From: a virus | Strand: one strand, 5' to 3' | IMG/VR virus record: IMGVR_UViG_3300017991_000003 | Coordinates: 128,001 to 192,000 of that record | DNA: 64,000 nt | Shown here: one piece after another, positions 4,358-63,299 of the stretch | Layout of the letters: each line of letters starts with the position of its first letter | Position numbering within the stretch: position 1 is the first letter of the stretch | Translations under genes and position numbers: made by a program | The notes under the pieces: generated by a model | What the model was told of the DNA's origin: nothing | The model's input: only the letters and a program-made list of their open reading frames with translations | The model's database searches: none

Positions 4358-4390
4358 GGGTAGGTGGTGGGGTAGAGGTGATCGACATGA

Positions 4391-4400: not shown

Positions 4401-4411
4401 ACAGTCCCTGG

Positions 4412-5164: not shown

Positions 5165-5250
5165 TGGTGCGGGAGGAGGGACTCGAACCCTCACGCCCGA
5201 AGGCAGTGGATTTTGAATCCACCGTGTCTACCGATTCCAACCACCCCCGC
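5165..5250 (-). tRNA. tRNA-Leu (anticodon CAA)
   Basis: Minus-strand cloverleaf: acceptor GCGGGGG, anticodon stem GTGGA/TCCAC with loop TTCAAAA (anticodon CAA), long variable arm, T-arm GGGTTCGAGTCCC, encoded CCA. Confidence 0.8.
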
Positions 5251-10783: not shown

Positions 10784-11289
10784 TGCACCCATCAAGCAAG
10801 GCCAATATGAGGGAGGCCTGGGCACTCGTTCCCGACCCCCACCGCGTCGGGGACGTCCTTGATGTAGGCGGCGGTCGTGGCGGGGAATACCAGGAAATCT
10901 GGAAAGGGTGTGCTAGCTACCGAACGGCTGACATTGCAGGTGACTGCGACCTCTTGATGCCTGGTGAGTACGAGATTCCACTTCCGGATGATTCGATCGA
11001 TGTGGTGATTAGCGGCCAGACACTGGAGCATGTCCGCAACCCTTTCCGCCTCGTCACCGAGATGCGCCGGGTACTGAAGCCCGGTGGCTACGTGGTGATC
11101 ATCGCCCCGTCCGCGGGCCCGGCCCATTTCAAGATCGACTGCTGGCGCTTCGTCCGGGATGCGTTCCGGGCCATCGCCCACGAGTGCGATCTAGAGGTTG
11201 TTGCCGATTGGATCTATACCGGGGACTCTGGCCGAGGTCCTAACAAGCAGTGGAACGATCACACCTTCGTGGGGAGGAAGCCCGAGTGA
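10783..11289 (+). CDS. class I SAM-dependent methyltransferase
   Basis: VLDVGGGRG (motif I) and LKPGGYVVI (post-I) motifs; start overlaps upstream stop by 1 nt. Confidence 0.65.
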   Translation: MHPSSKANMREAWALVPDPHRVGDVLDVGGGRGGEYQEIWKGCASYRTADIAGDCDLLMPGEYEIPLPDDSIDVVISGQTLEHVRNPFRLVTEMRRVLKPGGYVVIIAPSAGPAHFKIDCWRFVRDAFRAIAHECDLEVVADWIYTGDSGRGPNKQWNDHTFVGRKPE

Positions 11290-11987
11290 ATGCGTATGCC
11301 ATCACGCTCTTCGGTAACGAGACCAGCACCCAGAGCGTTGACAAGCTCTTTGAGTCCCATGTGGCGCTTGAGCAGCATTTCGATCTGATCCGCTTCCCGG
11401 CCATCACTCCTGACCAGAACCAGGAGATCATGGCGGAGGAGCGCCTGGTGTGGACCTATCCCTGGGAAAACAACCGGCTGGATGGGATCACTGGCTTGAA
11501 GCTGCATCCCTACGCCACACGTGATCGGGGTGCGCGGATCGCCTGCTTCCTATCGCACTACCACCTCTGGAAGCTGGCCTGCGAGACTGGGGAGTGGGTG
11601 ATGATCCTGGAGGACGACACGGTATTCACCAAGCACCTAGACCTAGACAGCCTGCCTTACCGTGAGTGGAGCGCCGTCGGCATCAACAACCCACTAGGGG
11701 CGACGCGTCGAGCGCCTGTGTTCCACGACAAGGTCGTGGCGCAGCGTCCGACTCCGATCATCGAGACCCCGTGGGTTGATGATGAAGTCAGGACCCCGCA
11801 GGGGCTGGCCGGCCACAGTGCCTACATGATCAGCCCTGAGCTGGCTAAGGACCTGATCCATCGAGCCCGTCATGCGGGTTGCTGGCCTAACGACGCATTG
11901 ATGTGCAAGCAGCTGTACCCTGGGAAGCTCGGGGTCACAACCGAGTTCTACACCCGAGTCCAGCAGACCCCGAGTACTCTGGCATGA
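11286..11987 (+). CDS. glycosyltransferase family 25-like (LPS-type glycosyltransferase)
   Basis: GTG start giving VNAYAITLFG...; ACFLSHYHLWKL and ILEDDTVF resemble the GT25 signature; GTGA overlap with upstream stop. Confidence 0.6.
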   Translation: MNAYAITLFGNETSTQSVDKLFESHVALEQHFDLIRFPAITPDQNQEIMAEERLVWTYPWENNRLDGITGLKLHPYATRDRGARIACFLSHYHLWKLACETGEWVMILEDDTVFTKHLDLDSLPYREWSAVGINNPLGATRRAPVFHDKVVAQRPTPIIETPWVDDEVRTPQGLAGHSAYMISPELAKDLIHRARHAGCWPNDALMCKQLYPGKLGVTTEFYTRVQQTPSTLA

Positions 11988-32901: not shown

Positions 32902-32989
32902 GGGCTGGTCTTAGGAGGAAGGCCTGGCTCGCAGTGCAAGATAGACACCGCTACGAGGCTTGTCAACATTCCTATACGACCTTCTAGGC

Positions 32990-47104: not shown

Positions 47105-47652
47105 TGGACGCCTCCTCCAGCATTCAATCGGCCATGACTGGTCGGTTGCGGCTCTACAAGAGCACCGAGCGGCCAACGCTGGACGGTTGGGAGGACCTGG
47201 ACCTCGTCCTTGACCGACCCAACCTCGTGGTGGATACCGCTCAGACGGCCCTTCTGGGCCTTCTTCAGCGTCAGTTCACTGACTACGCCCCGGCGTACAT
47301 CGTTCTGGGAGCGGGTGGCGACCTTGAACAGGTCTCGAAACAGGACTTCGGATCTCGCGTTGCCCCTGCGGTCACCGATACGGAGGTCCGAGAAGTCGTC
47401 GCCCGTCTTCCTATCCTTCAAATCACCCCAGACGACTCTGACGACACGAGCTGGGACTACGTGACCATCGCGCGGCCCCACGAGGCCAACACCACAAGCC
47501 TCAATGAGCTGGGGCTGGAGACGGCGAACAACACGCTGATCGCCCACGTGGTCACTGATCCTGACGCCGGCGAGTCCCGCGCCAAGAAGTACGTCAAGAG
47601 CAGCCTCGAGTACCTCGTGGTCCGGTGGACCATGACCTTCACCCTGAGCTAA
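47104..47652 (+). CDS. hypothetical tail-associated protein (182 aa)
   Basis: Internal ATG (MDASSSIQSAM) of track ORF 46933..47652; 1-nt start/stop overlap. Confidence 0.5.
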   Translation: MDASSSIQSAMTGRLRLYKSTERPTLDGWEDLDLVLDRPNLVVDTAQTALLGLLQRQFTDYAPAYIVLGAGGDLEQVSKQDFGSRVAPAVTDTEVREVVARLPILQITPDDSDDTSWDYVTIARPHEANTTSLNELGLETANNTLIAHVVTDPDAGESRAKKYVKSSLEYLVVRWTMTFTLS

Positions 47653-49994
47653 TGTCCCAGTCGATCTCCACTGCCTATCACGCGCTCGACACGTCGAGGC
47701 TCCAGAACACGCGCTTCGATGGCGTGGTGCAGCCCGGGGTCTATGAGGGCTACAGAGCGCGCGCCAACTCGGGCCAACAGAACCTGATCGACCTCACGAC
47801 CGGAGACGATGACGCGAGCGTCCTTGTTACCTCCGAAGGTGTGCGCGTTGAGGAGAGCGCTACGGTCTTTGCCGCGGTCCAGGTCGATTCGGCCGATCCG
47901 AGCCTGACCCGCATCGATCTGCTCGTGGCTGAGTACCAGTACACGACGGACACGACGCAGACGCAGACCTACAAGCTCATCAAGGGCAAGAACCAGACGA
48001 ACCTGAGCGCTGACCCCGTGCGCCCCACGGTGGAGAGTGACTATCAGGTGGCCCTGGCTTGGATCACGGTCCGTCCCCAGAAGAGCACTGGCGGGGCCAT
48101 CCAGGCGAAGATCGAGAACACCGACATCATCCACGTCCCCAAGGCGGCGTGGGCAGAGGCTCCTTCGGAGCTGTCGGGCCTCAAGCCGGAGATCGATCCC
48201 AACGACGCGCGCCGGCTCTTCGTCCATCAGGGTGTGATGCCCAACGTGGACGGCACCCGGGTCATCCAGTTCCTGGGCGGCTACAGCGACGTCATCGACC
48301 CGGACACCCTCGATAACCTCCAGGAGTACTGGTACACGTTCGGCGTCGATGATCAAGGCGATGTGGAGGTCATCGGCTCGGCGGCCACCCAAGCGGCTCT
48401 GCCTGACCTCACCAACAGCAGCCTGCCTGTGGCTCAGGTGCGGGCGCAGAAGATCGGTGGCCAGATCCAGCTCCAAGAGCTGGTGGACATTCGCTTCTCG
48501 TTCAGCCGTCAACTGGCCCAGGACCAGGAGGGCTACAACTACCGGGACCTTCTGGCCAACTCCGTCTTCCGGTACCTGCGGGTCGACACGTTCACGGACG
48601 ACTCGCTGCTTGATCTCGACTCCGTGGAGCTAGCCACAACTGAAGATGCTAGTGACCTCACGGCTGAGATTGATAGCAGCGACACCAGCCTGACCGTCAC
48701 GTGGTCAGGAACGACGTCGGTGCCGTCCGAAGAGGTGGCTATCGTCACCACGAACCTGCTCTCCGGCACTGCGATCTCCAAGATCGAGCACTTCATGCTT
48801 GCCGTGGAGGCCGGCTTCGAGAACCTCGAGTTCCGCTACAGCACGAGCTCGGCTACGAGCGGGTTCAGCACTACGCGGCACAGCCCCGGCGAGATCGTCC
48901 GCATCCCGTTCAACGGCGCGACCAAGCTCTACATCAAGTTCCTGATCCCCGTCTCGGGGTTCAGCTCGGGCGAGGCCAAGATCTTCAGCTACGGCGCCCT
49001 GATCAACTTGAGTGGTGGCGCTGTCAACGCGACGACCCTGGGTGACCTAGGTCTCCTGGCTTTCCCCTACTCGGTCAACAACCTGGTGGCCAACGGCAGC
49101 TTCTACTACTGGAGCCGGCCGCTGTCCGACGGGACCGAGCCTGACCTGACCAGCCAGGATGAGCAGAGCTTCGCGCTCAGCTCCGAAGACGACTATCCGC
49201 TGGTGGCCGACGGCTGGCAGATGACCAAGTTCCCGACCCCTGTGGCCGGTGAGGTGGTCAAGCGCATCATTCGGGACCAGGGCGATAACACCGCTGCTAC
49301 GGCGATCGAGATCACGACCTCGGCCGCTGACGAGGCTGGCGCGGTCAACGTCATGGAGTACCGGATCCCGGTGGGCGCGGAGATGCAGGGGCAGTACCTG
49401 ACCCTAGCCGCGGCCTTCGAGACCACGACGCCCCAGTCCCTTGCTGTGGGGCTCGCCATGTACCGGCGCACCTCCAGCGGCCTGACGCTCAAGGAGAAGG
49501 ACGAGACCTACGCCAAGACAACCAGCGGCGAGATCTACGTGCGCTCCAGCTCTGCCATCGGCCCCGACGTGGACCAGATCAGCGTCTACGTGCTCATGAT
49601 CGCCAGCACGGCCGAGGTCACGCATAGGCTCTGGGATGTGCGCACGGCGGCTGGTGAGTTCTCGAGCCTCCCGATGCTCAAGGTGGTCGATGCCCCTGAC
49701 GTCCTGCGCCAGTACTACGAGCGTGGGCGCATCTACACGGCGCAGAACGTCACCGAGAACGTCCAGGTAGGCGCCGCGACCCAGTTCGGGGCCACCAAAG
49801 CCGAGAGCCTCGGCACCCTGGTGGGGCGCACGGTGCCTGTGAGTAGCGCCAACCGCTCGACCAACGTCGGCGACCTCATCTACTCGGCGGATCGTCACGG
49901 TCTGCTCATCACCGCAACCTCGAGCTCTTCGGGCGTGTCCACTGTGGACGCTGATTGGGAGAGCTTCGTCAAGTTCGAGTCCAGCGTCCTATGA
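47652..49994 (+). CDS. tail-fibre-like protein (780 aa)
   Basis: Internal ATG (MSQSISTAYH) of track ORF 47625..49994 overlapping upstream stop; contains NLVANGSFYYW carbohydrate-binding-module-like motif. Confidence 0.65.
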   Translation: MSQSISTAYHALDTSRLQNTRFDGVVQPGVYEGYRARANSGQQNLIDLTTGDDDASVLVTSEGVRVEESATVFAAVQVDSADPSLTRIDLLVAEYQYTTDTTQTQTYKLIKGKNQTNLSADPVRPTVESDYQVALAWITVRPQKSTGGAIQAKIENTDIIHVPKAAWAEAPSELSGLKPEIDPNDARRLFVHQGVMPNVDGTRVIQFLGGYSDVIDPDTLDNLQEYWYTFGVDDQGDVEVIGSAATQAALPDLTNSSLPVAQVRAQKIGGQIQLQELVDIRFSFSRQLAQDQEGYNYRDLLANSVFRYLRVDTFTDDSLLDLDSVELATTEDASDLTAEIDSSDTSLTVTWSGTTSVPSEEVAIVTTNLLSGTAISKIEHFMLAVEAGFENLEFRYSTSSATSGFSTTRHSPGEIVRIPFNGATKLYIKFLIPVSGFSSGEAKIFSYGALINLSGGAVNATTLGDLGLLAFPYSVNNLVANGSFYYWSRPLSDGTEPDLTSQDEQSFALSSEDDYPLVADGWQMTKFPTPVAGEVVKRIIRDQGDNTAATAIEITTSAADEAGAVNVMEYRIPVGAEMQGQYLTLAAAFETTTPQSLAVGLAMYRRTSSGLTLKEKDETYAKTTSGEIYVRSSSAIGPDVDQISVYVLMIASTAEVTHRLWDVRTAAGEFSSLPMLKVVDAPDVLRQYYERGRIYTAQNVTENVQVGAATQFGATKAESLGTLVGRTVPVSSANRSTNVGDLIYSADRHGLLITATSSSSGVSTVDADWESFVKFESSVL

Positions 49995-50629: not shown

Positions 50630-51346
50630 ATGTGCGACGTCATCGCCCCTCTTGGAGTCAGCCTGTTCTTGATGACGGCTGCTTTCATCTATGCTGTTTT
50701 TCAGAACAAGAAACTACGGCAGGCTCCAAGGTGCATATTCCCCTCGTCGGCCTGCCCGCATGACGGTCACAAGAACAAGGTGATGCGTGAGAAGGCCGTG
50801 GCCTTCGAGGCCGCTTTCAACAACGCGGCACACGGCATGGCGGTCGTCGACATCGACGGGAGCTGGGTACGCGTGAACGATGCCCTTATCGACATGCTTG
50901 GGTACACGCGAGAGGAGCTCGTGTCCGGGATGACGTTCCAAGACGTCACGCATCCGGACGATCTCGACAAAGACCTGAAGCTGATGCAAAAGCTCCAGGA
51001 CGGTCATATTCGGAAGTATCACCTGGCCAAGAGGTACATCCGCAAGGACGCTCACGTGATCTACATCATGCTGTCCGTCAGCCTGATCCGTAACCTGAGT
51101 GATCATCCGCTGTTCTATGTCTCGCAGATTATCGAGCGCACCGCAGACCAGGTGGAGCTCGATCGACTGCGGGAAGAGGCCCGCCGGTGGCGTTCTGAGG
51201 CGCTTTTGTGGGAGCAGCGCCTAGAGTCTACCCGGCAGCGCCATAACGAGGCGTTGGATCGGCTGATCCAGCCCTCGAGTGCTCCCTCCGTCGAAGAGCC
51301 GAGCACGTCTCAGCCGTCCACTAAGCCGCACCAGGATCATGACTAA
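50630..51346 (+). CDS. membrane-anchored PAS-domain protein (238 aa)
   Basis: N-terminal hydrophobic helix (VIAPLGVSLFLMTAAFIYAVF) followed by a PAS-like region (FEAAFNNAAHGMAVVDIDGSWVRVNDALIDMLGYTREELVSGMTFQDVTHPDDLD...). Confidence 0.6.
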   Translation: MCDVIAPLGVSLFLMTAAFIYAVFQNKKLRQAPRCIFPSSACPHDGHKNKVMREKAVAFEAAFNNAAHGMAVVDIDGSWVRVNDALIDMLGYTREELVSGMTFQDVTHPDDLDKDLKLMQKLQDGHIRKYHLAKRYIRKDAHVIYIMLSVSLIRNLSDHPLFYVSQIIERTADQVELDRLREEARRWRSEALLWEQRLESTRQRHNEALDRLIQPSSAPSVEEPSTSQPSTKPHQDHD

Positions 51347-51761: not shown

Positions 51762-52081
51762 TTGAGCACCTGCTAGCTGGCCTACTCGATGGACTCGAGA
51801 AGGAGGCCGGCCGTGCGCCGCGTGCTCCTGAGTACAAGGTCCTCGATAAACATCGAGTTGCCTTGACGCCTGGCGAGCGCGCCTACGTCATGGACAACAA
51901 GGCCGTCTGGCACCGCGCGTGGAAGAACGGCAAGCAGGTGCCCAGTCCTGCTGTCTGGAAGGCTGTCATGCCCGACGGTAAGGTTTGGTACGTGACCAAC
52001 ACGCATCGGGTTATGAACGCGCGCCCCACGGTGCGTGGGGCTGTTAGCCGCTACCACAAGTTCATCAAGACCACGGCATGA
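51758..52081 (+). CDS. hypothetical protein (107 aa), GTG start
   Basis: Track ORF; GTGA overlap upstream and ATGA overlap downstream. Confidence 0.45.
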   Translation: MIEHLLAGLLDGLEKEAGRAPRAPEYKVLDKHRVALTPGERAYVMDNKAVWHRAWKNGKQVPSPAVWKAVMPDGKVWYVTNTHRVMNARPTVRGAVSRYHKFIKTTA

Positions 52082-53160
52082 GCCAGCGCTTCGCCACCAC
52101 CCACCAGGCGGTCAACCTCCTGCGTAACGGGAGCCTCGAGATGGTCGAGGCCCTGGACAGCGGTGCGCAGAAGCCCCATTTCTGGTCATTCGACGCCCTG
52201 ATCCACGAGGCGCTTCAAGATGCGGTCGTGGTAAACACCTTCGAGGTCCTTCAGGAGGATCCTGGACCGGCCCCGGCTAGCCGGTTTCGTGTGGAGCTTG
52301 TCACGGGCGAGCCCTCCAAGCTCTATCAGGACACGACCCGGGACGCCTCGGTCCACGTCCAGGATTTCCCGGTCCCGCTAGCGCCGTCGTTGAAGCCGGC
52401 GCTGCCGCAGGGCCACTTTTCTACCGAGGTCCACGCCCTCCCCAAGGGGGATTACACGCTCTCCTTCGATGTTCGGGCCTACCAAGGCACCGTGTCGATC
52501 GATCCAGCTGCTTGGGACCTCGTCGGAGCGGTGCAGACGCCGACCTACCCCACTGGCCAGACTTCCGTGACACTGGGAGCTAGTGCCATCTGGCGCCGGA
52601 TCACCATCCAGTTCTCGGTCGACTACGCCCTGGGCGGTGTCGGGCTCCAACTAGAGCGCACAACGTCCTCCGGTCTGGCTGTGGTAGAGATCGGCAACGT
52701 CATGTTGGCTCAGGGGCACTACCGCTACCTTCCGTACACCGGCGACCCGCTCCTCTCGGCCATCCCCAAGGGGGCGATCATCCTCACCATGGGGTCTGTG
52801 TGCCCTCCTGGCTTCGAGGAGATCGGCGAGGATGGTCTTGAGCCTCTGCCTGAGTGGGTGGCTGATGAGCCCAACATCCTGGCACGCAAGGGTAACTACC
52901 CGCGCGAGGGCACGGAGCTAGTGGGAACGACCTCGCATACTGTGGATGCTGTCGAGATCACTCCGGGCACCACGGATGCGCTCGAGTTCTCCGGTCCCGA
53001 CAGCAAGGTGGTTGATGGGACTCTCGTCGACACCTCCAAATCCAATCCGGCGACGGACGAGCCCGGCGGGTCTCAGGGCGTCCCGGAGCATGATCACACG
53101 ATTGAGACGGCAGGTACGCGGCCGGTGAGCCGCGGCTACCTCCTTTGCCGGCGCATCTGA
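52078..53160 (+). CDS. tail-fibre protein with CBM-like N-terminus, collar-like domain and C-terminal HxH motif (360 aa)
   Basis: AVNLLRNGSLE (carbohydrate-binding-module-like start), IILTMGSVCPPGFEE (tail-collar-like), PEHDHT near C-terminus; paralogous to the next two fibre genes. Confidence 0.7.
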   Translation: MSQRFATTHQAVNLLRNGSLEMVEALDSGAQKPHFWSFDALIHEALQDAVVVNTFEVLQEDPGPAPASRFRVELVTGEPSKLYQDTTRDASVHVQDFPVPLAPSLKPALPQGHFSTEVHALPKGDYTLSFDVRAYQGTVSIDPAAWDLVGAVQTPTYPTGQTSVTLGASAIWRRITIQFSVDYALGGVGLQLERTTSSGLAVVEIGNVMLAQGHYRYLPYTGDPLLSAIPKGAIILTMGSVCPPGFEEIGEDGLEPLPEWVADEPNILARKGNYPREGTELVGTTSHTVDAVEITPGTTDALEFSGPDSKVVDGTLVDTSKSNPATDEPGGSQGVPEHDHTIETAGTRPVSRGYLLCRRI

Positions 53161-56100
53161 TGGAAGTGAACACCCTCAACCAGCGCAACGCGCTGAACCT
53201 CCTGCGTAACGGCTCCTTCTCGCAAGGAGTCGCGCACTGGTGGGGGAGCTATCTACGCCACAAGCGCAGCTCCGGAGGCCAGACGCTGGGCTCCAATGCT
53301 CCTGAGTATGCTCTGGAGGTCTTCCAGGCCCAGGACACGAGCTATCCAGACTCGGTGACGCCCGGGGCGCATCAGTGGGTGGATCGCCCGGATCTATTCA
53401 CCTATCCCAGCCAGCGGCTGGTGAGCGGCCTGCGCCTCATTCCTTTTACGGATGATCGAGCGCTGCTCCAGGTCGTGCCGGAGCTGACGGCGATGGATGG
53501 GGTCGTCCTCGCTGAGCCGGACGCTGCGGAGATCCCGACCTACTCCGATATCTTCCAGCACCCGTTCGTGCACCTGGAGCCGGATGGGACGCGTGTGAAC
53601 ATCGAGGCGGGTTCGGTCCTGCCTCTCACGGATACCCGGCGCCCGGAGTCGAGCGGCCTGTACCGTGTGGGCTCCTTCCTGGAGAACCGGAATGGAACCG
53701 GTGTGGCGTCGGACTATGACCCGTCCAACTACCACGAGTACACCTACCACGGCCTGGAGATCAATCCGCTGAGCGGAGGCTCGTACAAGGCTCTGATGAC
53801 CCACGAGACGAGCGGCGTGGTCACGGCCGCCATCACCGCGGAGGCGTCGGGCCTGTACACCGTGGTGACGATCTCGGTCGACAAGGACGTGGTGCGCGGC
53901 TTGGATCGCGAGCAGCCTGGGTACACCCCGGAGCTTGGCTTGGCGGTCGGTGATGTGTTCACCATGACCGAGCCGGTGCTGCGCTCGGGCGTGATCACTC
54001 AGGTGGCGATCTCGGACGACCAGACGGTCGTGACGCTCATCCCACTCGCTAACTATGGCGACTACGTGGTCACCCCGTTCGTGGAGGACGTGACCCCGGA
54101 GGCCTGGTCGATCTACGCCACGTCGGTCGCTACGGTGCGGCGCACCATGCCGCTGTACGCCTACGACTTCACCCTGGGCTACACCTGCCGGATCAACGAC
54201 GGCTACTCAGCCCCGGCCGAGACCTCGATGGTGGCCCGGACTCTTTCGGGCACGGGGACTCTTGTGGGCACAGGCACGGTCGGCGCTGAGATCCCGCGCA
54301 TCGGCGGCAAGCGCAAGATCGTCAACCTCCTAATCGACGAGGACACGGTCGACGGGGCGTGGCAACGCCGGCTCGAACGTCACTTCCGGGAGGCCTCGGC
54401 TCCGCTGGAGGGGCGTATCGACCTCTCGGTCCTGCCCCCGGCCGGCTCCGAAGACAGCTACCCCACTCCAACCAGCAAGCTGCCTGACTCGGTCTACTGG
54501 TACTTCTTCACGGACCTGGATGGGGAACTTCCGAACCTCAACGATCCGCCGGAGTCGATCGAGGACACGCCGCACTTCCAGATCAACATCCCGGTCGACG
54601 AGAACAACCTGCCTCCGGCTGAGTGGCTGGCCGGCAACAAGGAGTTCACGGTCACGCCCTTCGGCGACACGTCCGAGCTCGAGGAGCAGTTCTCCTGGAT
54701 CATTCCGCTGCTGCTCGTTCCTAGCTTCACGGCGCAGGCAGCGCTGCTAGAGGTCCCCGACGAGACCTATCCGGCTCTGCTGAAGCTCTACGTCGCCTGG
54801 GATACCGACGAGTTCGGCGCCTTCCCTAGCGTGGATGGCTTCAACATCGGCTGGAACAGCACAGTGACGGCTACCTGGGGCTTCAACGTCAAGGGTCTGA
54901 ACGGCTCTGGTGCGCGCGCTCTGGTCTCGGACGTCTTCATGACCCACGGGGATCAGGCGCAGCGGCTCGAGAAGCTCGATGACACGGCCCTGCCTGTCAC
55001 AGGCCCGCTCACCGATGATGTCTCGATCGATCCCCTGCGCCACGGGGTCGATCTCTTGGAGAACGTGATCCCGCCCGGGGCGGTGGTCCTCTACGCCGGC
55101 GGCGGTACCTGCCCTCCGGGCTTCAAGCGAGTGGAGAGCTTCCCCGACGCCGCTGTAGCGGGAATCGGCTCGGACGCTGATCTGACCCTCACTGACGCAA
55201 CCGTCGTCTACGACACGGCCCGTGATCGGACCAAGATCACCTGGACGGGTCGGGAGTTCCCGCTCTATGACGATGACGGGGGTGTGATCCCGATCCCTGA
55301 GCTCGCTCTCTCGGTCAGCAAGCCGATTCCAGGCATCCCGGACTCTCTCCAGGAGGTCAAGTTCACGCCGAGCCAGCAGGTGGTACAGCCGGGCATGGCG
55401 GTTCGTGTCCCTGAGTTCCTCATGGACTCGACGATCACCGAGACCGACCCGCTGTTCTCTTCGGAGACCCTCGGCAAGGCCATGCGCGCTGTAGGTGGCT
55501 GGGCGCAGCTGCATCGCCCCGAGGAGCCACTATTCAGCCGACTCGGTGTCGAGCTGTGGTTCCAGACCCAGAGCAGCATCACGACTTCTGGCGATGAGCG
55601 CCTGTCGTGGATCTTCCGCCAGGCCAAGAAGGTCGGCGATGATGTGATCAGCTGGGGCCTTCTGTACGTCACGTCTGGCACGGACGGGGGCAAGCTCGAG
55701 TGGCGTGTCGAGACGGTCGGCTCCCTGGGTGCCCGCACAGACGTCTATCGCATGACCACGGCGGCCCTTCCGGTTAGCGGATTCGCCGGTGACTGGATGC
55801 ACATCATCGTGGAGTTCAGCGCGCCCAACTCCGGTACGGTCGGCGAGCCGGGCCAGGGCGTGACCCCTGATGTGCGCATCACCTTCAGCGATACGGAGGA
55901 CTCCTACGGCACGCTGATCGAGAGCCACAACTTCGGCGTGGTACAGGCAGGGGCTGATCTGGCCAAGGGCGCCGTGCTGCGGCTAGGCCACACCCCCGAG
56001 GTAGATGGCGCGCTGGGGACGAGCTCCTATACCGACCCGGTGACCGGGAACCTGATCACCCTGGCCGCCAAGCACATCGACAACTTCCGCGTCTTCGATC

Positions 56101-57377
56101 TCTCTAGTCAGGAGATGACCGAGTCGGAGCGTGTGGCTCTGTGGAATAGCGGGAAGGGTCTGGCCCTGGCACCGGCCGAGCTCCAGAGTCGTCTTGTCAC
56201 CGAGGTGCGCTTCGATGAGGGCTACGGCTCCACGGCTGTGGACTCGGCCCCGGTCAACTGGACAGAGCCCGTCCAGCTGCAAGGCGCCGCCTCGTGGACT
56301 ACGGGTCACGTGCTGGCCTTGGGCGGCTCAGACTTCGGGACGGACGACTACCGCGCGCCCTTCGAGGACAAGGCGCGTAGCTACCTCGTCACCAAGGTCG
56401 AGTCGATTCTGGTCGAGGCCGAGGGCGCCTTCGCCAGCGGCATCCCCTACAACCCCTCGGCCAACCCGGTTGGTAACGGGCTCGGGGACGTGCTGTACCC
56501 CTTCTCGGTGTCTGAAGACGATCTGATGGAGGGGGATAAGACCATCATGCCGCTCGGCCCGGGCCTCACAGGCCAGTCGGCCACCTTCGATGGTGGGGCG
56601 GTGCTTTCTGGGCAGTTCTGGAACGGCACGTCGAGCGGAGGGCTGTTCTCGACGATCACGATGCGGAACTTCGGATCGCAGCCGTCAGATTGGAACCCGC
56701 AGGTGGGCGACGTCTACTTCCTCCAGTGGGAGAGCTCAGACAACCCCGGCCTGGCCCTCGGATGGTTCCCGGCACGTCTGACCGACATCACGATCGAGAC
56801 GGGTATCCCGGTGTACCGCTACTACACCTTCCAGCGGTATGACGGGCGCAAGATCCAGCTGACCCCGGCCGAGTACCAGCAGCTCAGTTACGAGGACGCG
56901 TTGTCCGGGGACAAGGGCACGATCACGGTCCGCCCGGTCAAGCTCTTTGGCGACGGGGAGCAGGTTGTGGCATCGGAGACCGGTGCCATCACTCCGCAGG
57001 CTGTGACCATCTCGGAGACCTTCTACAACTCGACGCGCTACTGGGTGGTACGCCGGCTGAGCAACAACCTCGAGCTCGAGGTCAAGGGCGACCTATCCAT
57101 CCCCACCGGTCAGACTGAGATCCATGTCGAGGCCACGGGCTATCTGCGCTACGATGATCCTGAGGACAAGATGGACTACGGCGCAGGCGGACACAGTCAC
57201 CGGGTGGGTGGCGCTCTCACGGCTACCGACGATTTGATCCCCAGGATCTCCGAGACCGGTTCCCTGGCGTCCGAGCCCTATCAGGCTGTGGCGCAGGATC
57301 ACGACCATGGGTTCCAGAGCGTCTTCCGGTTCCCGCTGCCCAAGTTCCGCCTATTCACGGCCTGCCAGAAGCTCTAG
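53160..57377 (+). CDS. large tail-fibre protein paralog (1405 aa)
   Basis: Internal ATG (MEVNTLNQRN) of track ORF 53145..57377; LNLLRNGSF, VVLYAGGGTCPPGF collar-like motif, C-terminal GGHSHR and DHDHG. Confidence 0.75.
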   Translation: MEVNTLNQRNALNLLRNGSFSQGVAHWWGSYLRHKRSSGGQTLGSNAPEYALEVFQAQDTSYPDSVTPGAHQWVDRPDLFTYPSQRLVSGLRLIPFTDDRALLQVVPELTAMDGVVLAEPDAAEIPTYSDIFQHPFVHLEPDGTRVNIEAGSVLPLTDTRRPESSGLYRVGSFLENRNGTGVASDYDPSNYHEYTYHGLEINPLSGGSYKALMTHETSGVVTAAITAEASGLYTVVTISVDKDVVRGLDREQPGYTPELGLAVGDVFTMTEPVLRSGVITQVAISDDQTVVTLIPLANYGDYVVTPFVEDVTPEAWSIYATSVATVRRTMPLYAYDFTLGYTCRINDGYSAPAETSMVARTLSGTGTLVGTGTVGAEIPRIGGKRKIVNLLIDEDTVDGAWQRRLERHFREASAPLEGRIDLSVLPPAGSEDSYPTPTSKLPDSVYWYFFTDLDGELPNLNDPPESIEDTPHFQINIPVDENNLPPAEWLAGNKEFTVTPFGDTSELEEQFSWIIPLLLVPSFTAQAALLEVPDETYPALLKLYVAWDTDEFGAFPSVDGFNIGWNSTVTATWGFNVKGLNGSGARALVSDVFMTHGDQAQRLEKLDDTALPVTGPLTDDVSIDPLRHGVDLLENVIPPGAVVLYAGGGTCPPGFKRVESFPDAAVAGIGSDADLTLTDATVVYDTARDRTKITWTGREFPLYDDDGGVIPIPELALSVSKPIPGIPDSLQEVKFTPSQQVVQPGMAVRVPEFLMDSTITETDPLFSSETLGKAMRAVGGWAQLHRPEEPLFSRLGVELWFQTQSSITTSGDERLSWIFRQAKKVGDDVISWGLLYVTSGTDGGKLEWRVETVGSLGARTDVYRMTTAALPVSGFAGDWMHIIVEFSAPNSGTVGEPGQGVTPDVRITFSDTEDSYGTLIESHNFGVVQAGADLAKGAVLRLGHTPEVDGALGTSSYTDPVTGNLITLAAKHIDNFRVFDLSSQEMTESERVALWNSGKGLALAPAELQSRLVTEVRFDEGYGSTAVDSAPVNWTEPVQLQGAASWTTGHVLALGGSDFGTDDYRAPFEDKARSYLVTKVESILVEAEGAFASGIPYNPSANPVGNGLGDVLYPFSVSEDDLMEGDKTIMPLGPGLTGQSATFDGGAVLSGQFWNGTSSGGLFSTITMRNFGSQPSDWNPQVGDVYFLQWESSDNPGLALGWFPARLTDITIETGIPVYRYYTFQRYDGRKIQLTPAEYQQLSYEDALSGDKGTITVRPVKLFGDGEQVVASETGAITPQAVTISETFYNSTRYWVVRRLSNNLELEVKGDLSIPTGQTEIHVEATGYLRYDDPEDKMDYGAGGHSHRVGGALTATDDLIPRISETGSLASEPYQAVAQDHDHGFQSVFRFPLPKFRLFTACQKL

Positions 57378-57380
57378 GTC

Positions 57381-58499
57381 ATGGCGACTCCAGACGTACC
57401 CACGTACCACAACCTCGCTGCCAGCAGCCGTAGCCGGCTGAATCTGGTGAGCAACGGGGGCTTCACGGCCTACTCCGGGGGGTTGGGCGTCGTGGAGGAC
57501 ACGTTGGCGCTTCGTAAGGGCGGGGATGCCGAGGTCGTGCGGCAGGATCTGATCGACAAGCGGCTCTACCAGGACGTGAGTGCCTCGTTCTCGGTCCCTG
57601 CGGAGGCTGGTGGAGAGAACATCCTGGGCCATTGGGACATCTACGGCACCGATGGCGCTCTCGAGGTCGCCCCTGTCGACGACCAGACCGACCAGGTGAT
57701 CCCTTCGCAGGACGGAGGCAACCTGATGCGGGTTTCCTTCACGTCCGCGGGCACGATCACCATGGATCAGCGGCTCGAGGACACCGCTCCGCTGCGTGGA
57801 CAGATCCTGAGCGTCACGTACACGGGTCGCAGCTTCACTCAATCCGTGCTGGTCGACGCCCAGGTGGTCGTTGACGGCGAGGTGGTCTCCAATCTACAGC
57901 AGCAGTCCAAGACCTTCGGTGCCCGGCGCCGGCCGCTCTTCACAGCGACCATTCCGAGCACTGCCAAGGAGGTCCTGATCCGCTTCGAGCTCTCTGGAGG
58001 GCCTGGAAGCGCGGTTGGATTCGCTGGAATCGCCGTTTTCCTGGGGGATACGGGCCCGACGGCGGCCTACACCCCTAGCGTGGCTGATCTCACAGTGTCC
58101 TCGGGCACGGTGATCCTGTGGAGTGGTGAGACCTGCCCGGCGGGGTACCGTACCCTGCCTGGGAGCACGGAACGCATGGCCTTGCTCACGGGGGGACCGG
58201 CAAACTTTATGTCGGCCGGGGGCGAGGCCACCTTCACCGGTGGTCAGGACACCCATGATCACCACCCTGATGGGGCCGCAGATACTCTGGAAGCCCCTTT
58301 GACAAGCGCACACGACACCGACACGCCGATCCCCTTCGAGAAGCAGACCGCGGTCCACGGTGTGGAGTTCGGATCTCAGGATCAGTACCCCGGTGAGAAG
58401 CCCGTGTACGCTCTAGGCGTCGAGCACACCCACAAGACGCGCTCGGACATGACGTCGATCCCACCCTGCTTCCCGGTGCGCTACTGCGTCAAGATCTGA
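57381..58499 (+). CDS. tail-fibre protein paralog (372 aa)
   Basis: LNLVSNGGF N-terminal motif, VILWSGETCPAGY collar-like motif, C-terminal THDHH and EHTHK. Confidence 0.7.
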   Translation: MATPDVPTYHNLAASSRSRLNLVSNGGFTAYSGGLGVVEDTLALRKGGDAEVVRQDLIDKRLYQDVSASFSVPAEAGGENILGHWDIYGTDGALEVAPVDDQTDQVIPSQDGGNLMRVSFTSAGTITMDQRLEDTAPLRGQILSVTYTGRSFTQSVLVDAQVVVDGEVVSNLQQQSKTFGARRRPLFTATIPSTAKEVLIRFELSGGPGSAVGFAGIAVFLGDTGPTAAYTPSVADLTVSSGTVILWSGETCPAGYRTLPGSTERMALLTGGPANFMSAGGEATFTGGQDTHDHHPDGAADTLEAPLTSAHDTDTPIPFEKQTAVHGVEFGSQDQYPGEKPVYALGVEHTHKTRSDMTSIPPCFPVRYCVKI

Positions 58500-58768
58500 T
58501 GGCCCGTCCTGCTGTAACCCTCTACTACCAGAGCAACTGCGGTTTCTGCCCAGATGCGATTGAGGGGTGTGCGGGCCTCGTAGAAGCCCTGGGTGCTCCT
58601 ATCCTTATTCGTAAGCCGACTTTGCAGGAAATGAAGTCCGGGCAGATCCCTGGCTATCCCGCCCTGTTCGTGCCGGCTGGGGTCCGAGGCCTCACCCGCC
58701 CCTATCTCCTGGTAGGTGCGGCCCTCCCCGACCTCCTTGACCAGTTGCTGAGCTCCACGGATGGCTGA
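58499..58768 (+). CDS. glutaredoxin/thioredoxin-fold small redox protein (89 aa)
   Basis: TLYYQSNCGFCPDA: CxxC active-site-like motif in a beta-alpha start typical of glutaredoxin-like proteins. Confidence 0.55.
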   Translation: MARPAVTLYYQSNCGFCPDAIEGCAGLVEALGAPILIRKPTLQEMKSGQIPGYPALFVPAGVRGLTRPYLLVGAALPDLLDQLLSSTDG

Positions 58769-61700
58769 CCTCCGGATTCTCACCGAACTCCTTCCCCTGG
58801 CCTTCGCCGGCGAGGCGTACTCTGTGCGCCTTCAGGCGCGGGGCGGGACCGCTCCGTACACCTGGTCGGTTCAGTCGGGCACCCTGTTCACCGGGATGTC
58901 GCTGGATTCGAGCACTGGAGAGCTCACCGCGGCTGCCAGCGCGCTACTAGGTACCGAGGTAGGGGATCGTACGATCACGTTCCGCGTCACGGACAGCCTA
59001 GCGGCTACGCATGACCTCGAGGTGACGCTGACGCTGCGCCCGGCGAACTACCGCCGAGCCACGGCGCTCATGCTGGACCCGCGCCTGGAGCGCATGCTGT
59101 CCATCTGGGATGTCGGCGTGGCCACCCGCGCTCAGATCACGGCACACTTCGCCCAAGGGCCGAAGTTCACCAGCATCACGCCGGCGGGGACATTCAAAGA
59201 GGACGTCTGCGTTCACTACGCGGACCAGATCTGCTACGGCCAGACTCCCGCCAGCCCCGCGAGCCCCGGTGCGAGCCCCGGCCAGACGGTCTGGGACAAG
59301 ATCCAAGAGCTCGATGGCGGCGGTAAGGTCCTCGCCGAGCCCAAGATCATCACGGTCAGCGCCTACAGCTCGACCGAGATCAATACGAGCCCGCAAGAGG
59401 TGGTGGGTTTTGGGCCTGACGACGATCTCTTGGGCGAGGGCCTGGGTGTGCGCGTCGTCGGTATGGACGAGGGTCCGGTCTACGGTAGCCCTGAGAACAC
59501 GCTGGGCTATTTCGCCCTGGGCCAGCGCTTCACGCTTCCGGCTGAGGCGAGCCCCTCGAGCGTCACCCTGTACCTCAACCGGTTCAGCAGCCCCGCCAGT
59601 CCGGGTAACCTGACCGTCGGCCTGTCGCTGGCGAGCCCGGGTAACATCCAGATCCCCGCTGGTTCGTCCTACGCTGCGTTCGGCGACGGCTCCGCGGTGG
59701 TGGCCTCCGGTACGCTGAGCCTTGCGACGGTCTCGAGCGACGCCTCCCGAACCAGCTGGACCTCGGCGCACGCCTACGACATCCCCCTCACGCTTCAGAG
59801 CCCTTTCACGGGTCTGGATGCGAACCGCAACTACTACCTGACGATCGCTGCTGACTTCGCCGGCAGCCCGTTCCTGGAGATTGCGGCCAGTGTGGACGAC
59901 GTGACGAGCCTTGTGGCGGGCAGCGAGGCCATCGCCCTCACCACGGCCTTCGCCACCTCGAGCCCGTACTACAGCCCCACCTCGGCGGCGAGTCCTGCCC
60001 TCAAGGCGCCCTTCGAGCTTGCTACTAGCCCGCAAAACGTGACCGGGTTGGCCTTCGGTCTCAACGCTGGCTGGACCGGTGCGACTGTCGGCATCGTCAC
60101 GCTTGCCGAGGTGGATCCCTACTCCGGGAGCCCGGCGACCAACGACCGGTACTGGGTGGGTGAATCCACGGCCACGGCCGCCGATGTGCGGGCCATGGCC
60201 TTCCAGTTGATCGACGGCTACGACCGCACCGGCTCGAGCCCGGTCCTGGACAAGACCAACTTCAACGAGTACGTCGATGCGTACGGCAACCAAGCCAGCA
60301 TCGTCGAGGCTCAAACCACCGCAGGGGCTGAGATCAACCCCAGCGGCGGTGGACAGACAGACGCCGACGGCTTTCTCTCGTCCGGTGGCGCGAAGCTCAG
60401 GGTCCAACTTCTTCCCAACTCTCGCGGTACTGTTCCTGAGCTTCCCTTCCGAGTGCTTGCGGGAAGCCGTCGGCTGCTTTCCAACCTAGGCGCGGACAGC
60501 CTGATCCGCACCGCCAACAAGACCGGCTCGACCGATGCTGAGGTCCTGGCGGCGCTGAACCTCACGAGCGCTTCCAACCCGCTTCTCAGTCTCAGCCAGA
60601 CGCTCAAGCCTGACTCCTCGGGCAACCTGGAGCTCACGGTCAACAGCGGTGCGTTGGCGTGGAACCTGAACCCCGGCTCCTACACGGCTGAGCTTCAGTT
60701 CAACGCCCAGCTCCGGGCGGCGGCTCTTGGAAGCCCCTCCGGCTCGGTCGACTTCGACAGCAACGGTGTTCTGACTCTGGACGCGGCGGACAGCACGATC
60801 ACGCTGACACCGGTTCCCGGTTCCAACAAGATCCAGATCGCTGCCCAGGTCGGCATCACGACCCTCAACACCGTCGACCCCGACGGCTCGGGCAACCTGA
60901 CCCTGGTGGCGGACGAGGACTCGAGCCACGCAGGCCAGACCTTCATCACGGTCTCGGCTGGCTCGGCCCCCAACACCGTCGAGATCGGCACCGCCATTCC
61001 GGACGCCACGACCAGCCTCGCTGGTCTGCTCTCCACCACGGACAAGCAACGCCTGGACGCGCTGTACGCTGGTAGCGACGACGTGACGACGGCAGGCACT
61101 GGTGCGCTGGCTGGTGGTCATGCCCACGAGGCCACTGCGCTCAACCTGGGCCGCACGCTGACCGGCTATTCGACGCTCCTGAGCTCGATGAACATCGCCG
61201 ATGCGCTCGAGGCCCTGAACATGGTGCTCTACGCCCAGTTCAGCCCGGCGTCCGAGGCTCCGAACCTCGCCACGGCGACCACGAGCTTCTCGGCCTTTGC
61301 TACCGGCTACCTAGCGGACGACTCGAGCACCATCGACTACTCGAGCCCCGGCTACGCGGCTGGTGATCTAGTCACCACGCTGGTCGAGAGCACCGCTGCG
61401 ACGGTCTTCACGGTCACCAGCGCCCCCTTCGGTAACCCGGGCAACTCCGGTACGGTCAAGGCCCAGCTCTATGACAGCCCCGGCGCTACGAGCCCTTGGG
61501 TCACGCTAGACACCATCGATCTGGACCAGACCTACTCGAACTCCCTGTCGGCGATCGGAGGCAGCCCGCCGAACTACACGTCGGTGGCGAGCCACATGCA
61601 GGCCAACCCGCTCAACGAGGCGGGCAGCCCGACCACCAAGATCAGCTTCCAGGCGGTCTCCTATAGTGGCCTGAGCACGGCCGGCGCCCCTGTCTTCCAG

Positions 61701-63299
61701 CTCCAGGTCAAGACGACCCCGGTGCTGTCGGACATGCAGAACGCGCTTGGCTACAACCAGGTGCGCCTGTTCCAGGACACCGGTGCGACGACCCATGCCT
61801 CGACCGCGGTCACGCTGGTCAAGGACAACTACCAGGGTGTGAGCGATCCGATCATCAACCAGTCGGACCTCGTACCGCTCTCGAGCGTCACTCCCGTGTG
61901 GGTCAGTGGTGTGCCGCACTACGCCGCGGCGACCGATCCGGCTTTCCGCGTGGATGCGGACAGCTTGTTCGACATCGCGTACATCCAGCAGCCTGTGCGG
62001 GTCTGGGATACGGCGGACAGCCCGACCGAGATCACGTTCAACTACTACGATGCGGCTGCTGCCAGCCCGTCGGACGCTACCTGGATCCCGAGCCCCTCGA
62101 CGCCCTTCCGTCTGGGTGTCGTGGGTGAGCCGTATGCGGTGACCGCTGAGGACATGACCTTCCTGGTCGGTACCGATGAGGTCTCGAGCCGGCTCCTGAC
62201 CCTGGAAGTCTCCGATCCGCACGGCGTCCAAGCCTCCCAGGCCTTCGCCTACTTCGATGCGGCGTCCAGCCCGGGCCGCCTGATGCACTTGGGTCGTGGC
62301 GGCCTCTCGAGCGGCAACCTGACGACCGAGTACTTCACCAACGAGAAGTACCGCCTGGACATCAATGACTACGCCGGGGTCGACTTCGCAAGCCCCGTGG
62401 CTAGCCCGAGCTTCACGTCGATCACCGTCCAGCCCTCTGGCAACGGCACGACCGATGCGGACACCTACGGCTGGCCCAACGAGTACGCGCTGACCACCTT
62501 CTCGGCCACGAACACCTGGAACGCGACGACCGGTAGCCCCAGCGCCGAGTTCCGAAGCGGTGTGAGTGTGACCTACGCGGCTGGTACTCTCAGCAGCCTG
62601 CCTGCTGCGGTGACCGACTTGGGTCTTGTGCACCCTGGCTACTGCTCGCTCTACAACTTCGACGAGAACCTGTACGCCCCGGCGGCTGCGAGTCCCTACA
62701 ACACGTACGCGGCCCACAGCAGCCCGCTGGGCTACTACGACGCTTACAGCGCGCAGGGCTCGGTGGTCTACCACCGCCTCTTCCAGAGCTCGACGGCCAC
62801 CAACCAAGGGCGTCTCAGGATCTACGGCTACAAGCGCGGTACGGCCAGCCCGACGCCGACGGTCCTCTCCTATGAGAACGTCGGCAGTCCGATCACGCTG
62901 AGCGACTTCACGGGATCCTTCCTCAATGTCGGCCCGGCTTCGAGCCCGACCCCGACGATGAGCGGTATCAGCCTTGAGGTCAAGTTCCCGAGCGCCACCA
63001 AGACGCCCAAGGACAACCCTGGCGCGACTGGCTGGCTCGACATGCTGACGACCCCCGGCTCGAGCCTCTACGCGCTCGGCGAGGACGGCTACGGGTGCGC
63101 TGACACCTCGGTCCACAGCCCCGGCATGGTCCAGGGCGCTGGCTACGTGGATGTCTACTGGCGCTCCGGCTCCTTCACCACCGGCCTGAGCAGCAACCAG
63201 GCGGTGGTTCGTGTGGGCATCCACGACAAGGAGTGGGTGATCACCAACATGCAGATGCTCAACCAGAGCACGGACACCCCCTGGACCAACGGCGCCTGA
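58761..63299 (+). CDS. giant structural protein with N-terminal Ig-like domain (1512 aa)
   Basis: N-terminus (AGEAYSVRLQARGGTAPYTWSVQSGTLFTGMSLDSSTGELT) resembles the putative-Ig/cadherin-like surface domain; remainder is Ser/Thr/Ala-rich with many [A/S/G]SP motifs. Confidence 0.8.
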   Translation: MADLRILTELLPLAFAGEAYSVRLQARGGTAPYTWSVQSGTLFTGMSLDSSTGELTAAASALLGTEVGDRTITFRVTDSLAATHDLEVTLTLRPANYRRATALMLDPRLERMLSIWDVGVATRAQITAHFAQGPKFTSITPAGTFKEDVCVHYADQICYGQTPASPASPGASPGQTVWDKIQELDGGGKVLAEPKIITVSAYSSTEINTSPQEVVGFGPDDDLLGEGLGVRVVGMDEGPVYGSPENTLGYFALGQRFTLPAEASPSSVTLYLNRFSSPASPGNLTVGLSLASPGNIQIPAGSSYAAFGDGSAVVASGTLSLATVSSDASRTSWTSAHAYDIPLTLQSPFTGLDANRNYYLTIAADFAGSPFLEIAASVDDVTSLVAGSEAIALTTAFATSSPYYSPTSAASPALKAPFELATSPQNVTGLAFGLNAGWTGATVGIVTLAEVDPYSGSPATNDRYWVGESTATAADVRAMAFQLIDGYDRTGSSPVLDKTNFNEYVDAYGNQASIVEAQTTAGAEINPSGGGQTDADGFLSSGGAKLRVQLLPNSRGTVPELPFRVLAGSRRLLSNLGADSLIRTANKTGSTDAEVLAALNLTSASNPLLSLSQTLKPDSSGNLELTVNSGALAWNLNPGSYTAELQFNAQLRAAALGSPSGSVDFDSNGVLTLDAADSTITLTPVPGSNKIQIAAQVGITTLNTVDPDGSGNLTLVADEDSSHAGQTFITVSAGSAPNTVEIGTAIPDATTSLAGLLSTTDKQRLDALYAGSDDVTTAGTGALAGGHAHEATALNLGRTLTGYSTLLSSMNIADALEALNMVLYAQFSPASEAPNLATATTSFSAFATGYLADDSSTIDYSSPGYAAGDLVTTLVESTAATVFTVTSAPFGNPGNSGTVKAQLYDSPGATSPWVTLDTIDLDQTYSNSLSAIGGSPPNYTSVASHMQANPLNEAGSPTTKISFQAVSYSGLSTAGAPVFQLQVKTTPVLSDMQNALGYNQVRLFQDTGATTHASTAVTLVKDNYQGVSDPIINQSDLVPLSSVTPVWVSGVPHYAAATDPAFRVDADSLFDIAYIQQPVRVWDTADSPTEITFNYYDAAAASPSDATWIPSPSTPFRLGVVGEPYAVTAEDMTFLVGTDEVSSRLLTLEVSDPHGVQASQAFAYFDAASSPGRLMHLGRGGLSSGNLTTEYFTNEKYRLDINDYAGVDFASPVASPSFTSITVQPSGNGTTDADTYGWPNEYALTTFSATNTWNATTGSPSAEFRSGVSVTYAAGTLSSLPAAVTDLGLVHPGYCSLYNFDENLYAPAAASPYNTYAAHSSPLGYYDAYSAQGSVVYHRLFQSSTATNQGRLRIYGYKRGTASPTPTVLSYENVGSPITLSDFTGSFLNVGPASSPTPTMSGISLEVKFPSATKTPKDNPGATGWLDMLTTPGSSLYALGEDGYGCADTSVHSPGMVQGAGYVDVYWRSGSFTTGLSSNQAVVRVGIHDKEWVITNMQMLNQSTDTPWTNGA

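Follow-up and report, generated by a model that had tools for sequence, protein, structure and literature searches.

The present analysis concerns three consecutive genes, ORF1, ORF2, and ORF3 (hereafter the triad), in a stretch of 64,000 nucleotides (nt) of the IMG/VR virus record IMGVR_UViG_3300017991_000003 (positions 128,001 to 192,000), which is referred to below as the window. With a GC content of ~63%, the window is GC-rich; it belongs to a metagenomic contig of ~193 kb. The three open reading frames (ORFs) had been described, from the DNA letters alone, as paralogous tail-fiber genes of 360, 1405, and 372 amino acids (aa) with a lectin-like start, a collar-like CPPGF motif, and C-terminal HxH motifs in common. 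The coordinates and lengths given in that original prediction are correct, as is the + strand. The genes are listed in Table 1 together with their parts, among them a domain resembling carbohydrate-binding modules (CBMs), and with other features of the window.

Table 1. Positions of the triad, its parts, and other features in the window.
Feature	Position	Strand	Description
ORF1	52078–53160	+	360 aa; short member: N-terminal CBM-like β-sandwich and C-terminal Cys/His-rich collar-like domain
ORF1 aa 21–215	52138–52722	+	CBM4/22-like β-sandwich; most variable part of ORF1
ORF1 aa 216–360	52723–53157	+	C-terminal domain: YTGDP, GAIIL..G..CPPGF (Cys242), His287, HDH 338–340, RPVSRGYLLCRRI (Cys357); invariant columns
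ORF2	53160–57377	+	1405 aa; expanded, divergent member with large inserted regions
ORF2 aa ~690–1320	55227–57119	+	Insertion after CPPGF and before the first HxH; the region of ORF2 that varies most
ORF2 aa 771–1058	55470–56333	+	Optional part of the insertion, lacking in the L006/L007 orthologue (alignment A3)
ORF2 aa 1321–1405	57120–57374	+	C-terminal piece of the split domain: GGHSH, QDHDH, FPLPKFRLFTACQKL
ORF3	57381–58499	+	372 aa; short member, two-domain architecture as in ORF1
89-aa gene	58499–58768	+	1-nt overlap with the stop of ORF3; small CxxC protein, probably of the thioredoxin fold
789-aa ORF	47625–49994	+	Upstream of the triad
789-aa ORF, from aa 486	49080–49991	+	C-terminal part; CBM-like domain possibly present as a fourth copy, with no Cys/His C-terminal domain
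Baseplate wedge gene	32960–35044	+	phrog_6, E 1.4e-17
3406-aa ORF	35054–45274	+	Directly after the wedge gene
PAS-domain gene	50630–51346	+	Pfam PAS, E 8e-11; hydrophobic N-terminal segment
1512-aa ORF	58761–63299	+	Downstream of the triad
First tRNA-Leu gene	5004–5090	−	
Second tRNA-Leu gene	5165–5250	−	
Accessory-type gene pair	9552–10226 and 11250–11984	+	

The triad genes are closely packed. The 5′ end of ORF1 overlaps the upstream gene by ATGA at 52078, ORF1 and ORF2 share a TGATG overlap at 53158–53162, and a gap of 3 nt precedes ORF3 at 57381. For ORF2, a TTG at 53145 offers an alternative start that would give a protein of 1410 aa; the ATG at 53160 was taken instead because the starts of the orthologues agree with it. 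The packing of the three genes fits a single translationally coupled operon.

Four signatures are found in all three proteins, and they are colinear. The first is an N-terminal start motif, N-L-[LV]-x-N-G-x-[FL], present as NLLRNGSL at aa 13 of ORF1, NLLRNGSF at aa 13 of ORF2, and NLVSNGGF at aa 21 of ORF3. The second, CPxG[FY], reads CPPGF at aa 242 of ORF1 and at aa 651–655 of ORF2, and CPAGY at aa 252 of ORF3. The third is the HxH motif, of which ORF1 has one (HDH 338–340, plus an invariant lone His287), while ORF2 (HSH 1345–1347 and HDH 1381–1383) and ORF3 (HDH 292–294 and HTH 349–351) have two each. The fourth, which had not been pointed out before, is a C-terminal end of the form C-x-[KR]-[IL], namely CRRI, CQKL, and CVKI in ORF1, ORF2, and ORF3, respectively. 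The motifs claimed earlier are thus present with two corrections: the start motif and HxH occur in all three proteins, but CPPGF as such is limited to ORF1 and ORF2, and the plural HxH does not hold for ORF1. Among the 43 likely genes of the window (~17,900 aa), CPxG[FYW] and the C-terminal Cys motif are confined to the triad, and the start motif has one extra occurrence, NLVANGSF, inside the 789-aa ORF at aa 486.

Pairwise BLASTP is nearly blind to the relationship of these proteins. Between the triad members it scores solely a 28-residue stretch around CPPGF (E 3e-4, 0.011, and 0.24), and a comparison that also included ten neighboring proteins gave nothing beyond this stretch. Profiles were therefore needed. 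Homologue searches provided 11 sequences each for ORF1 and ORF3, and the ORF2 orthologues were taken from syntenic loci. Aligned with hhalign, the ORF1 and ORF3 families match with a probability of 96% and E 1.9e-9; the aligned region of 215 columns begins in the second half of the N-terminal domain and extends to the last residue. The joint alignment of the two families contains 12 invariant colinear columns (Q84, G213, G239, C242, P243, G245, G283, H287, H338, H340, P349, and C357 in ORF1 numbering), and N17, G18, and W36 are near-invariant. When a 109-member family hidden Markov model (HMM) was run against all six-frame ORFs (≥60 aa) of the window, it matched ORF3 (E 3.9e-94), ORF1 (6.9e-91), and ORF2 (1.9e-8), and no other ORF.

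The match of ORF2 to the family HMM consists of three colinear pieces, corresponding to the N-terminal start, the CPPGF region, and the first HxH. With hhalign, the CPPGF region gives E 4.3e-5 and 1.6e-6 and the N-terminal start 6.6e-5; the C-terminal HxH fragments compared in isolation are not significant. As the C-terminal piece of ORF2 is too short to reach significance alone, a splice control was run, in which every 76-aa segment of ORF2 was attached in turn to the CPPGF piece and the product was scored with the HMM of the C-terminal domain. The true C-terminus ranks first of 240 segments, with 37.6 bits vs 29.9 ± 1.2 for the controls, which is 7.7 bits above the control mean and 6.4 bits more than the CPPGF piece alone. 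The top eight segments all overlap the last ~115 residues of ORF2.

The similarity of the three proteins therefore goes well beyond composition, and the paralogy put forward in the original prediction holds for ORF1 and ORF3 by direct comparison of their families and for ORF2 by the family profile. That the shared motifs are a chance or compositional likeness among unrelated proteins deserves practically no weight. The marginal BLASTP scores and the non-significant HxH fragments are what one would see in such a case, but it is refuted by the profile–profile E value, by the HMM matches (in round figures 1e-91 for ORF1 and 1e-94 for ORF3) that extend to no further ORF of the window, and by the occurrence of the same signature in ~150 representative clusters. 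With an identity of only 16–20% among them, ORF1, ORF2, and ORF3 are homologous and ancient copies of one gene, ORF2 being the most divergent.

The order of the domains is the same in the three proteins. For the N-terminal one, AlphaFold models with a mean predicted local distance difference test score (pLDDT) of 62 for ORF1 and 66 for ORF3 contain a well-predicted β-sandwich (pLDDT mostly >74) at roughly aa 20–215 and 30–225, respectively, with a jelly roll of the CBM4/CBM22 type. A Foldseek search with the ORF3 model against predicted viral structures returned entries annotated as "Carbohydrate-binding, CenC-like" and as "tail fiber protein", from E 6.8e-11. In terms of sequence, the identity of this domain to CBM4/CBM22 (CenC-like) modules is 8–18%, and Pfam CBM_4_9 has no match at E up to 1 in ORF1, ORF2, or ORF3. 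The N-terminal domain is thus predicted to be a CBM-type β-sandwich, and the AlphaFold fold and the Foldseek matches support the earlier notion of a lectin-like start at the level of the fold.

A relative at locus L012 (positions 3405–5051) has an ORF1-type gene of 548 aa with an insertion of ~180 aa inside the CBM-like domain, where positions 4–143 and 143–345 of the family HMM correspond to aa 2–159 and 341–550 of the protein. It follows that the N-terminal domain also tolerates insertions. Orthologues of the 789-aa ORF match the family HMM as well, at positions 14–208 with E 2.1e-4 in L012 and with E 0.029 in L009, while the copy in the window is not matched in the six-frame search. From these matches and its internal start motif, the 789-aa ORF may contain the CBM-like domain alone, as a fourth copy.

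For the C-terminal Cys/His-rich domain (C-domain), the relatives are more informative than the curated families. A full HMMER search with a merged ORF1+ORF3 profile and a cutoff of E up to 1e-3 yielded 231 representative clusters, all from metagenomes, of which 91 have E ≤1e-30; nearly all carry the four signatures. A word-indexed homologue search with the merged profile added nothing to the homologues found earlier. The lower-tier relatives (E 1e-8 to 1e-11) have the C-domain alone, on other N-termini, and match tail families of PHROG, namely phrog_5795 (E 7.4e-10), phrog_2097 ("tail fiber"), and phrog_1800 ("tail collar fiber"). In a tblastn search, the C-domain of one distant relative (P0151) matches annotated tail-fiber genes in 110 phage records. 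Among 32 relatives of the wider family, Pfam PF21939 (Gp10_C, gathering score 27 bits) appears below threshold in six (best E 0.0019) and it has no match in the window proteins, while PF07484 (Collar) matches neither ORF1–3 at E up to 1 nor the 32 C-domain sequences. The distant relatives P0146–P0166, which lie outside the window and have the C-domain only, contain three to four HxH motifs and an N-terminal module of the form VP.LI.YQG...G.Y...F.LYD...GG...W.E behind N-termini that resemble signal peptides by eye. One of them, P0158 (908 aa), consists of three tandem copies of the whole unit.

Searches of the solved structures and of the bacteriophage T4 proteins point to the tips of tail fibers. 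A trimmed C-domain profile finds the tail fiber gp60 of Pseudomonas phage Pa223 (PDB 9nxk) with E 0.0046, 119 of 129 positions being covered, and the Photorhabdus Pvc13 fiber (PDB 9qgo) with E 0.13; the full-length family profiles A1, A2, and A3 have no meaningful match among the PDB sequences. These trimeric fibers are the best sequence matches with a solved structure and lie below conventional family significance. The tip of Pa223 gp60 has been described as gp37-like (10.1101/2025.06.11.659172) and that of Pvc13 as a short-tail-fiber-like host-binding domain (10.1101/2025.04.20.649488). Both differ from the triad in having P-x-G-W...C instead of C-P-x-G-F, and neither has an N-terminal CBM. 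With relaxed hhalign settings, the C-domain profile aligns to residues 332–525 of T4 gp12 with a probability of 49% and E 1.7e-4. An hmmsearch of a six-protein database gives E 0.0014 for gp12 and a faint E 0.0066 for gp10, and no match for gp11.

The elements in the last ~195 aa of gp12 also occur in the same order, IPVGAIMMW...HKH...RPWNISLNYIIKV in gp12 vs IPKGAIIL..CPPGF...HDH...RPVSRGYLLCRRI in the triad. Residues 342–397 of gp12 form the collar, and Zn is coordinated on the three-fold axis by His445 and His447 from the three chains (PMC3004832). In T4 gp37, as summarized in PMC11705849, seven iron ions are held by HxH pairs. The triad resembles the gp37 needle and related marine phage fibers in having conserved HxH motifs near the C-terminus of a fiber-type protein, and differs from gp37 in having one or two HxH motifs rather than a long stack, in a domain that appears to be a globular, collar-like one and not a needle. 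Throughout the family the HxH is invariant, in a domain that is modeled at pLDDT <40. On the basis of these matches, we read the C-domain as a divergent relative of the collar/HxH tip class that passes no curated membership threshold. The proposed resemblance of the HxH motifs to the metal-binding sites of fiber tips is consistent with the profile matches to tips of this class (PMC3004832). The designation collar-like fares less well, since it can draw on the 49% alignment to the gp12 collar and finds no Pfam Collar match; in general, the profile searches suggested at that time are negative for the Collar and CBM families of Pfam, and it is the custom profiles that reach the fiber tips.

The large difference in size between ORF2 and the other two members arises mainly at one site. 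The distance from the Cys of CPxG to the next invariant His is ~40 residues in ORF1 and ORF3 and ~690 in ORF2, so that the C-domain of ORF2 is split; the N-terminal region of ORF2 is also expanded. The insertion is itself variable, as the ORF2 orthologue of L006/L007 is without ~290 of the inserted residues, which makes a protein of 1145 aa in L006 vs 1393–1414 aa in the other orthologues of that comparison. Insertions at the same loop are seen elsewhere in the family: ~290 aa separate the Cys of CPxG from the next HxH in 10 of 11 giant ORF3-like representatives (1564–2052 aa), the eleventh of which, P0118, has no HxH; ~258 aa lie between the two pieces matched by the family model in L021; and the ORF1 family has an insertion of ~17 aa relative to the ORF3 family. 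We therefore take the loop after CPxGF to be a recurrent insertion point. Searches of Pfam, PHROG, and the PDB sequences found nothing for the ORF2 inserts. Judging by its sequence, the optional module at aa 771–1058 may have a LamG-like fold. The giant members of 1564–2052 aa had been considered as ORF2 orthologues; this assignment was rejected, as they proved to be ORF3-like.

All related loci with sufficient flanking sequence (L001, L004, L006, L012, L015/16, L017, L018, and L020) contain the three genes of the triad in this order, which makes at least eight lineages; several of these loci are IMG/VR viral contigs. The sizes are 341–548 aa for the first gene, 1145–1426 aa for the second, and 361–385 aa for the third, and the identity of ORF3 falls to ~31% across these loci. 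Of 145 clusters, 70 are ORF1-like and 74 ORF3-like, near-equal numbers of the kind expected if each phage carries one of each. The constant order in at least eight lineages, together with the low identity of the paralogues, indicates an ancient triplication in which each copy has been kept in a fixed role, and as judged from these comparisons the triplication long predates the divergence of these phages. Searches of 50,697 phage records with the proteins ORF1, ORF3, and two other family members, and with the nucleotide sequence of the region, gave no match. By these searches, the family is one without a Pfam or PHROG model and without a relative in the deposited phage genomes examined.

The triad evolves faster than its neighboring genes. 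In the nearest relatives, L001 and L004, the triad genes are 54–66% identical to their orthologues, vs 70–76% for the flanking 479-, 789-, 89-, and 1512-aa genes (60–71% in L006); the C-terminal third of the 3406-aa ORF, with 52–55% identity, is as fast-evolving as the triad. Within the triad the variation is greatest in the CBM-like domain and the ORF2 insert and least in the split C-domain. In ORF2, the insert is 34–58% identical to that of the orthologues vs 60–73% for the ends, the C-terminal piece alone having 67–73%. Such a pattern is to be expected where host-contacting modules are displayed on a conserved structural core.

These data bear on the proposal that recent duplication and diversification gave rise to interchangeable receptor-binding proteins, which would broaden the host range or be used in a phase-variable manner. 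Three paralogous fiber-like genes in tandem are suggestive of such a system, and other phages are known to have branched systems of several receptor-binding proteins, such as CBA120 with four tailspikes, each of which recognizes the lipopolysaccharide of a different host (PMC8825819). The triad does not fit this pattern, and we consider the proposal highly improbable. In at least eight lineages that diverge to ~31% identity, every one of the three paralogues is represented by an orthologue of its own and their order is unchanged; the paralogues themselves are only 16–20% identical, and all three appear to be translationally coupled in one operon. Furthermore, there are no inverted repeats, invertible segments, template repeats of the kind found with diversity-generating retroelements, or slippery tandem repeats in or around the genes, and phase-variable or interchangeable use is thus unsupported. 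The repeats present in and around the triad are short and at chance level (18–34 nt), and the sole tandem repeat lies in the 1512-aa ORF. A direct repeat of 23 nt encodes the A-x-N-L-L-R-N-G start common to ORF1 and ORF2. Short DNA repeats that link ORF2 to the 223- and 789-aa ORFs were also considered and rejected, as there is no similarity at the protein level.

The reading that we favor, with a probability of about 0.65, is that ORF1, ORF2, and ORF3 form an ancient, co-transcribed paralogue triad of a baseplate/tail-fiber module, which combines CBM-type and gp12-related domains and has attachment roles like those of T4 gp10, gp11, and gp12. As to the location, the triad lies on IMG/VR viral contigs in the same-strand run as a baseplate wedge gene (Table 1), from which an unbroken + run leads through ORFs of 3406, 479, 789, and 223 aa to the triad and the 1512-aa ORF; the proteins would then be part of the virion. 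In the mechanism that we propose, the N-terminal β-sandwich would be the fast-evolving and presumably glycan-contacting part. The C-domain would trimerize, by analogy with gp12, and would hold a metal ion on the three-fold axis by means of its invariant HxH. The first strand of the C-domain (GAIILxxGxxCPxGF) may pair with the last one (FCxK[IL]) and thereby close the domain, while the loop after CPxGF would take up insertions, ORF2 bearing ~690 aa of variable extra modules at this point. The three proteins would be located together at the baseplate periphery as specialized, non-interchangeable host-recognition or attachment proteins, like gp10, gp11, and gp12.

A number of observations weigh against this reading. 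ORF1–3 have no recognizable N-terminal anchor or shaft, and no Pfam match at E up to 1; the sole PHROG match of the three is that of ORF1 to the tail-fiber family phrog_4492 (E 0.0046). The connections with solved structures and with T4 are either weak (E 0.0046 and a probability of 49%, as given above) or transitive, and the two invariant cysteines of the triad are without counterpart at the same positions of gp12. The kinship of ORF2 is carried by short colinear pieces. The supporting baseplate gene is 17 kb upstream, and most of the genes in between are unannotated. Finally, the structure prediction that had been proposed for the C-terminal regions was of limited help, as AlphaFold left ~90 residues of the C-domain at pLDDT 28–40 in the monomer models of ORF1 and ORF3 and the fold of this part is unproven. 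These runs used alignments of 11 and 22 sequences, and poor confidence for a monomer would be expected if the C-domain folds only as an intertwined trimer.

The main rival to the attachment roles proposed above is that some or all of the three proteins are purely structural adaptors, that is, baseplate building blocks (pins or adaptors like gp10 and gp11) without a receptor role, in which the CBM-like domain serves as a structural or protein-binding module and the giant 3406- and 1512-aa ORFs bind the receptor. T4 offers a precedent, since gp10 and gp11 have the gp12-type core yet serve as structural adaptors (PMC3004832). The strict conservation of the order and number of the triad genes across lineages is likewise what one finds for structural parts, and the 3406-aa ORF keeps pace with the triad in the evolution of its C-terminal third. 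The distribution of the variability speaks against this alternative, since a variable CBM-like domain and ORF2 insert on a conserved core are typical of host-contacting surfaces, and so do the closest viral structural matches, which are annotated as tail fibers and CenC-like carbohydrate-binding proteins. We therefore regard it as unlikely.

The comparison with T4 gp10–gp11–gp12 deserves further comment. The T4 proteins are encoded by sequential genes in a polycistronic arrangement, are built on a common core fold to which inserted loops are added, and interact with each other at the periphery of the baseplate (PMC3004832). The genes overlap at their junctions. The triad likewise consists of three sequential genes with partly overlapping junctions and, as judged by profiles, a C-terminal core in common. 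It differs in being without the triple β-helix shaft and the gp10-type N-terminal domain, the CBM-like sandwich directly preceding the tip. A further difference is that the paralogy of the triad is still visible in sequence profiles, while that of the T4 proteins is seen only in structures; if the present reading is true, the triad would provide a readable record of a triplication that in T4 can be deduced only from structures. Fibers that combine CBM-type domains with collar/HxH tips are already known, as are paralogous baseplate triads; what distinguishes the present family is an N-terminal CBM-like domain without a shaft, an invariant Cys pair, a fixed insertion loop, and sequence-visible paralogy.

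Several consequences can be drawn. Names and a domain map can be given to three large unannotated genes and to ~230 metagenomic clusters of poorly annotated, uncultivated large phages. The triad would be a second, sequence-traceable example of a gp10/gp11/gp12-type triplication, illustrating how baseplates grew by duplication and insertion, and the fixed site after CPxGF, which tolerates 40 to ~700 residues, is of possible interest for the engineering of receptor-binding proteins. As regards host range, the paralogous fiber genes of this locus would represent a division of labor and not a switchable specificity.

It is worth mentioning here a more far-reaching proposal, which we put forward tentatively and rate as rather unlikely, namely that the triad represents an undescribed family of host-recognition proteins. 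In such a family, a gp12-like core would be fused to a CBM and closed by the Cys...Cys pair, it would have a thioredoxin-fold partner, and it would act as a scaffold that accepts cargo domains of 250–700 aa at one fixed loop. The Cys pair may then be a disulfide or part of a Cys/His metal site, serviced by the product of the 89-aa CxxC gene downstream of ORF3. The CxxC (C14 and C17) and an IPGxPAL motif of this 89-aa protein are invariant in five orthologues. It has no Pfam or PHROG match, and its PDB matches are weak and consistently of the thioredoxin fold (2k8s with E 0.044, followed by 3ia1, 1xpv, 1ttz, and 1nho). That it is a dedicated redox or metal partner of the invariant Cys pairs of the triad is speculative.

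The surroundings of the triad also bear on the alternative that its products are secreted or cell-surface carbohydrate-binding accessory proteins rather than parts of the virion. The signal-peptide-like N-termini of the C-domain-only relatives, which may be cellular, are in favor of it, and so is the PAS-domain gene just upstream of the triad, which is unusual for a structural module. We nevertheless consider it very unlikely, as there is no signal peptide in the window protein sequences, the genes belong to an unbroken + run with the wedge gene and giant ORFs of structural type, the module is found on IMG/VR viral contigs, and the annotated relatives of the C-domain are tail proteins. The PAS gene itself, with its sensor-type domain at an unusual position in the middle of the tail module, is present in L001 and absent from L004 and L006; this patchy distribution among the relatives identifies it as an accessory gene.

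For the window as a whole, known phage families provide almost no match; when the neighboring genes, both in the window and at the distant loci, are scanned against PHROG, the result is likewise nearly empty. The 3406-aa ORF gives a sub-threshold TIG/IPT match (E 0.0011), and its relatives a weak Laminin_G_3 match. The 1512-aa ORF is rich in A-S-P and S-P motifs and has 70–75% identity to its relatives, which are weakly flagged as He_PIG. Of the accessory-type gene pair, one product is galactose-3-O-sulfotransferase-like (phrog_3347, E 4.1e-9) and the other weakly resembles a 2OG-Fe(II) oxygenase or a glycosyltransferase (phrog_61, E 5.3e-5). The two adjacent tRNA-Leu genes have the anticodons tag and caa.

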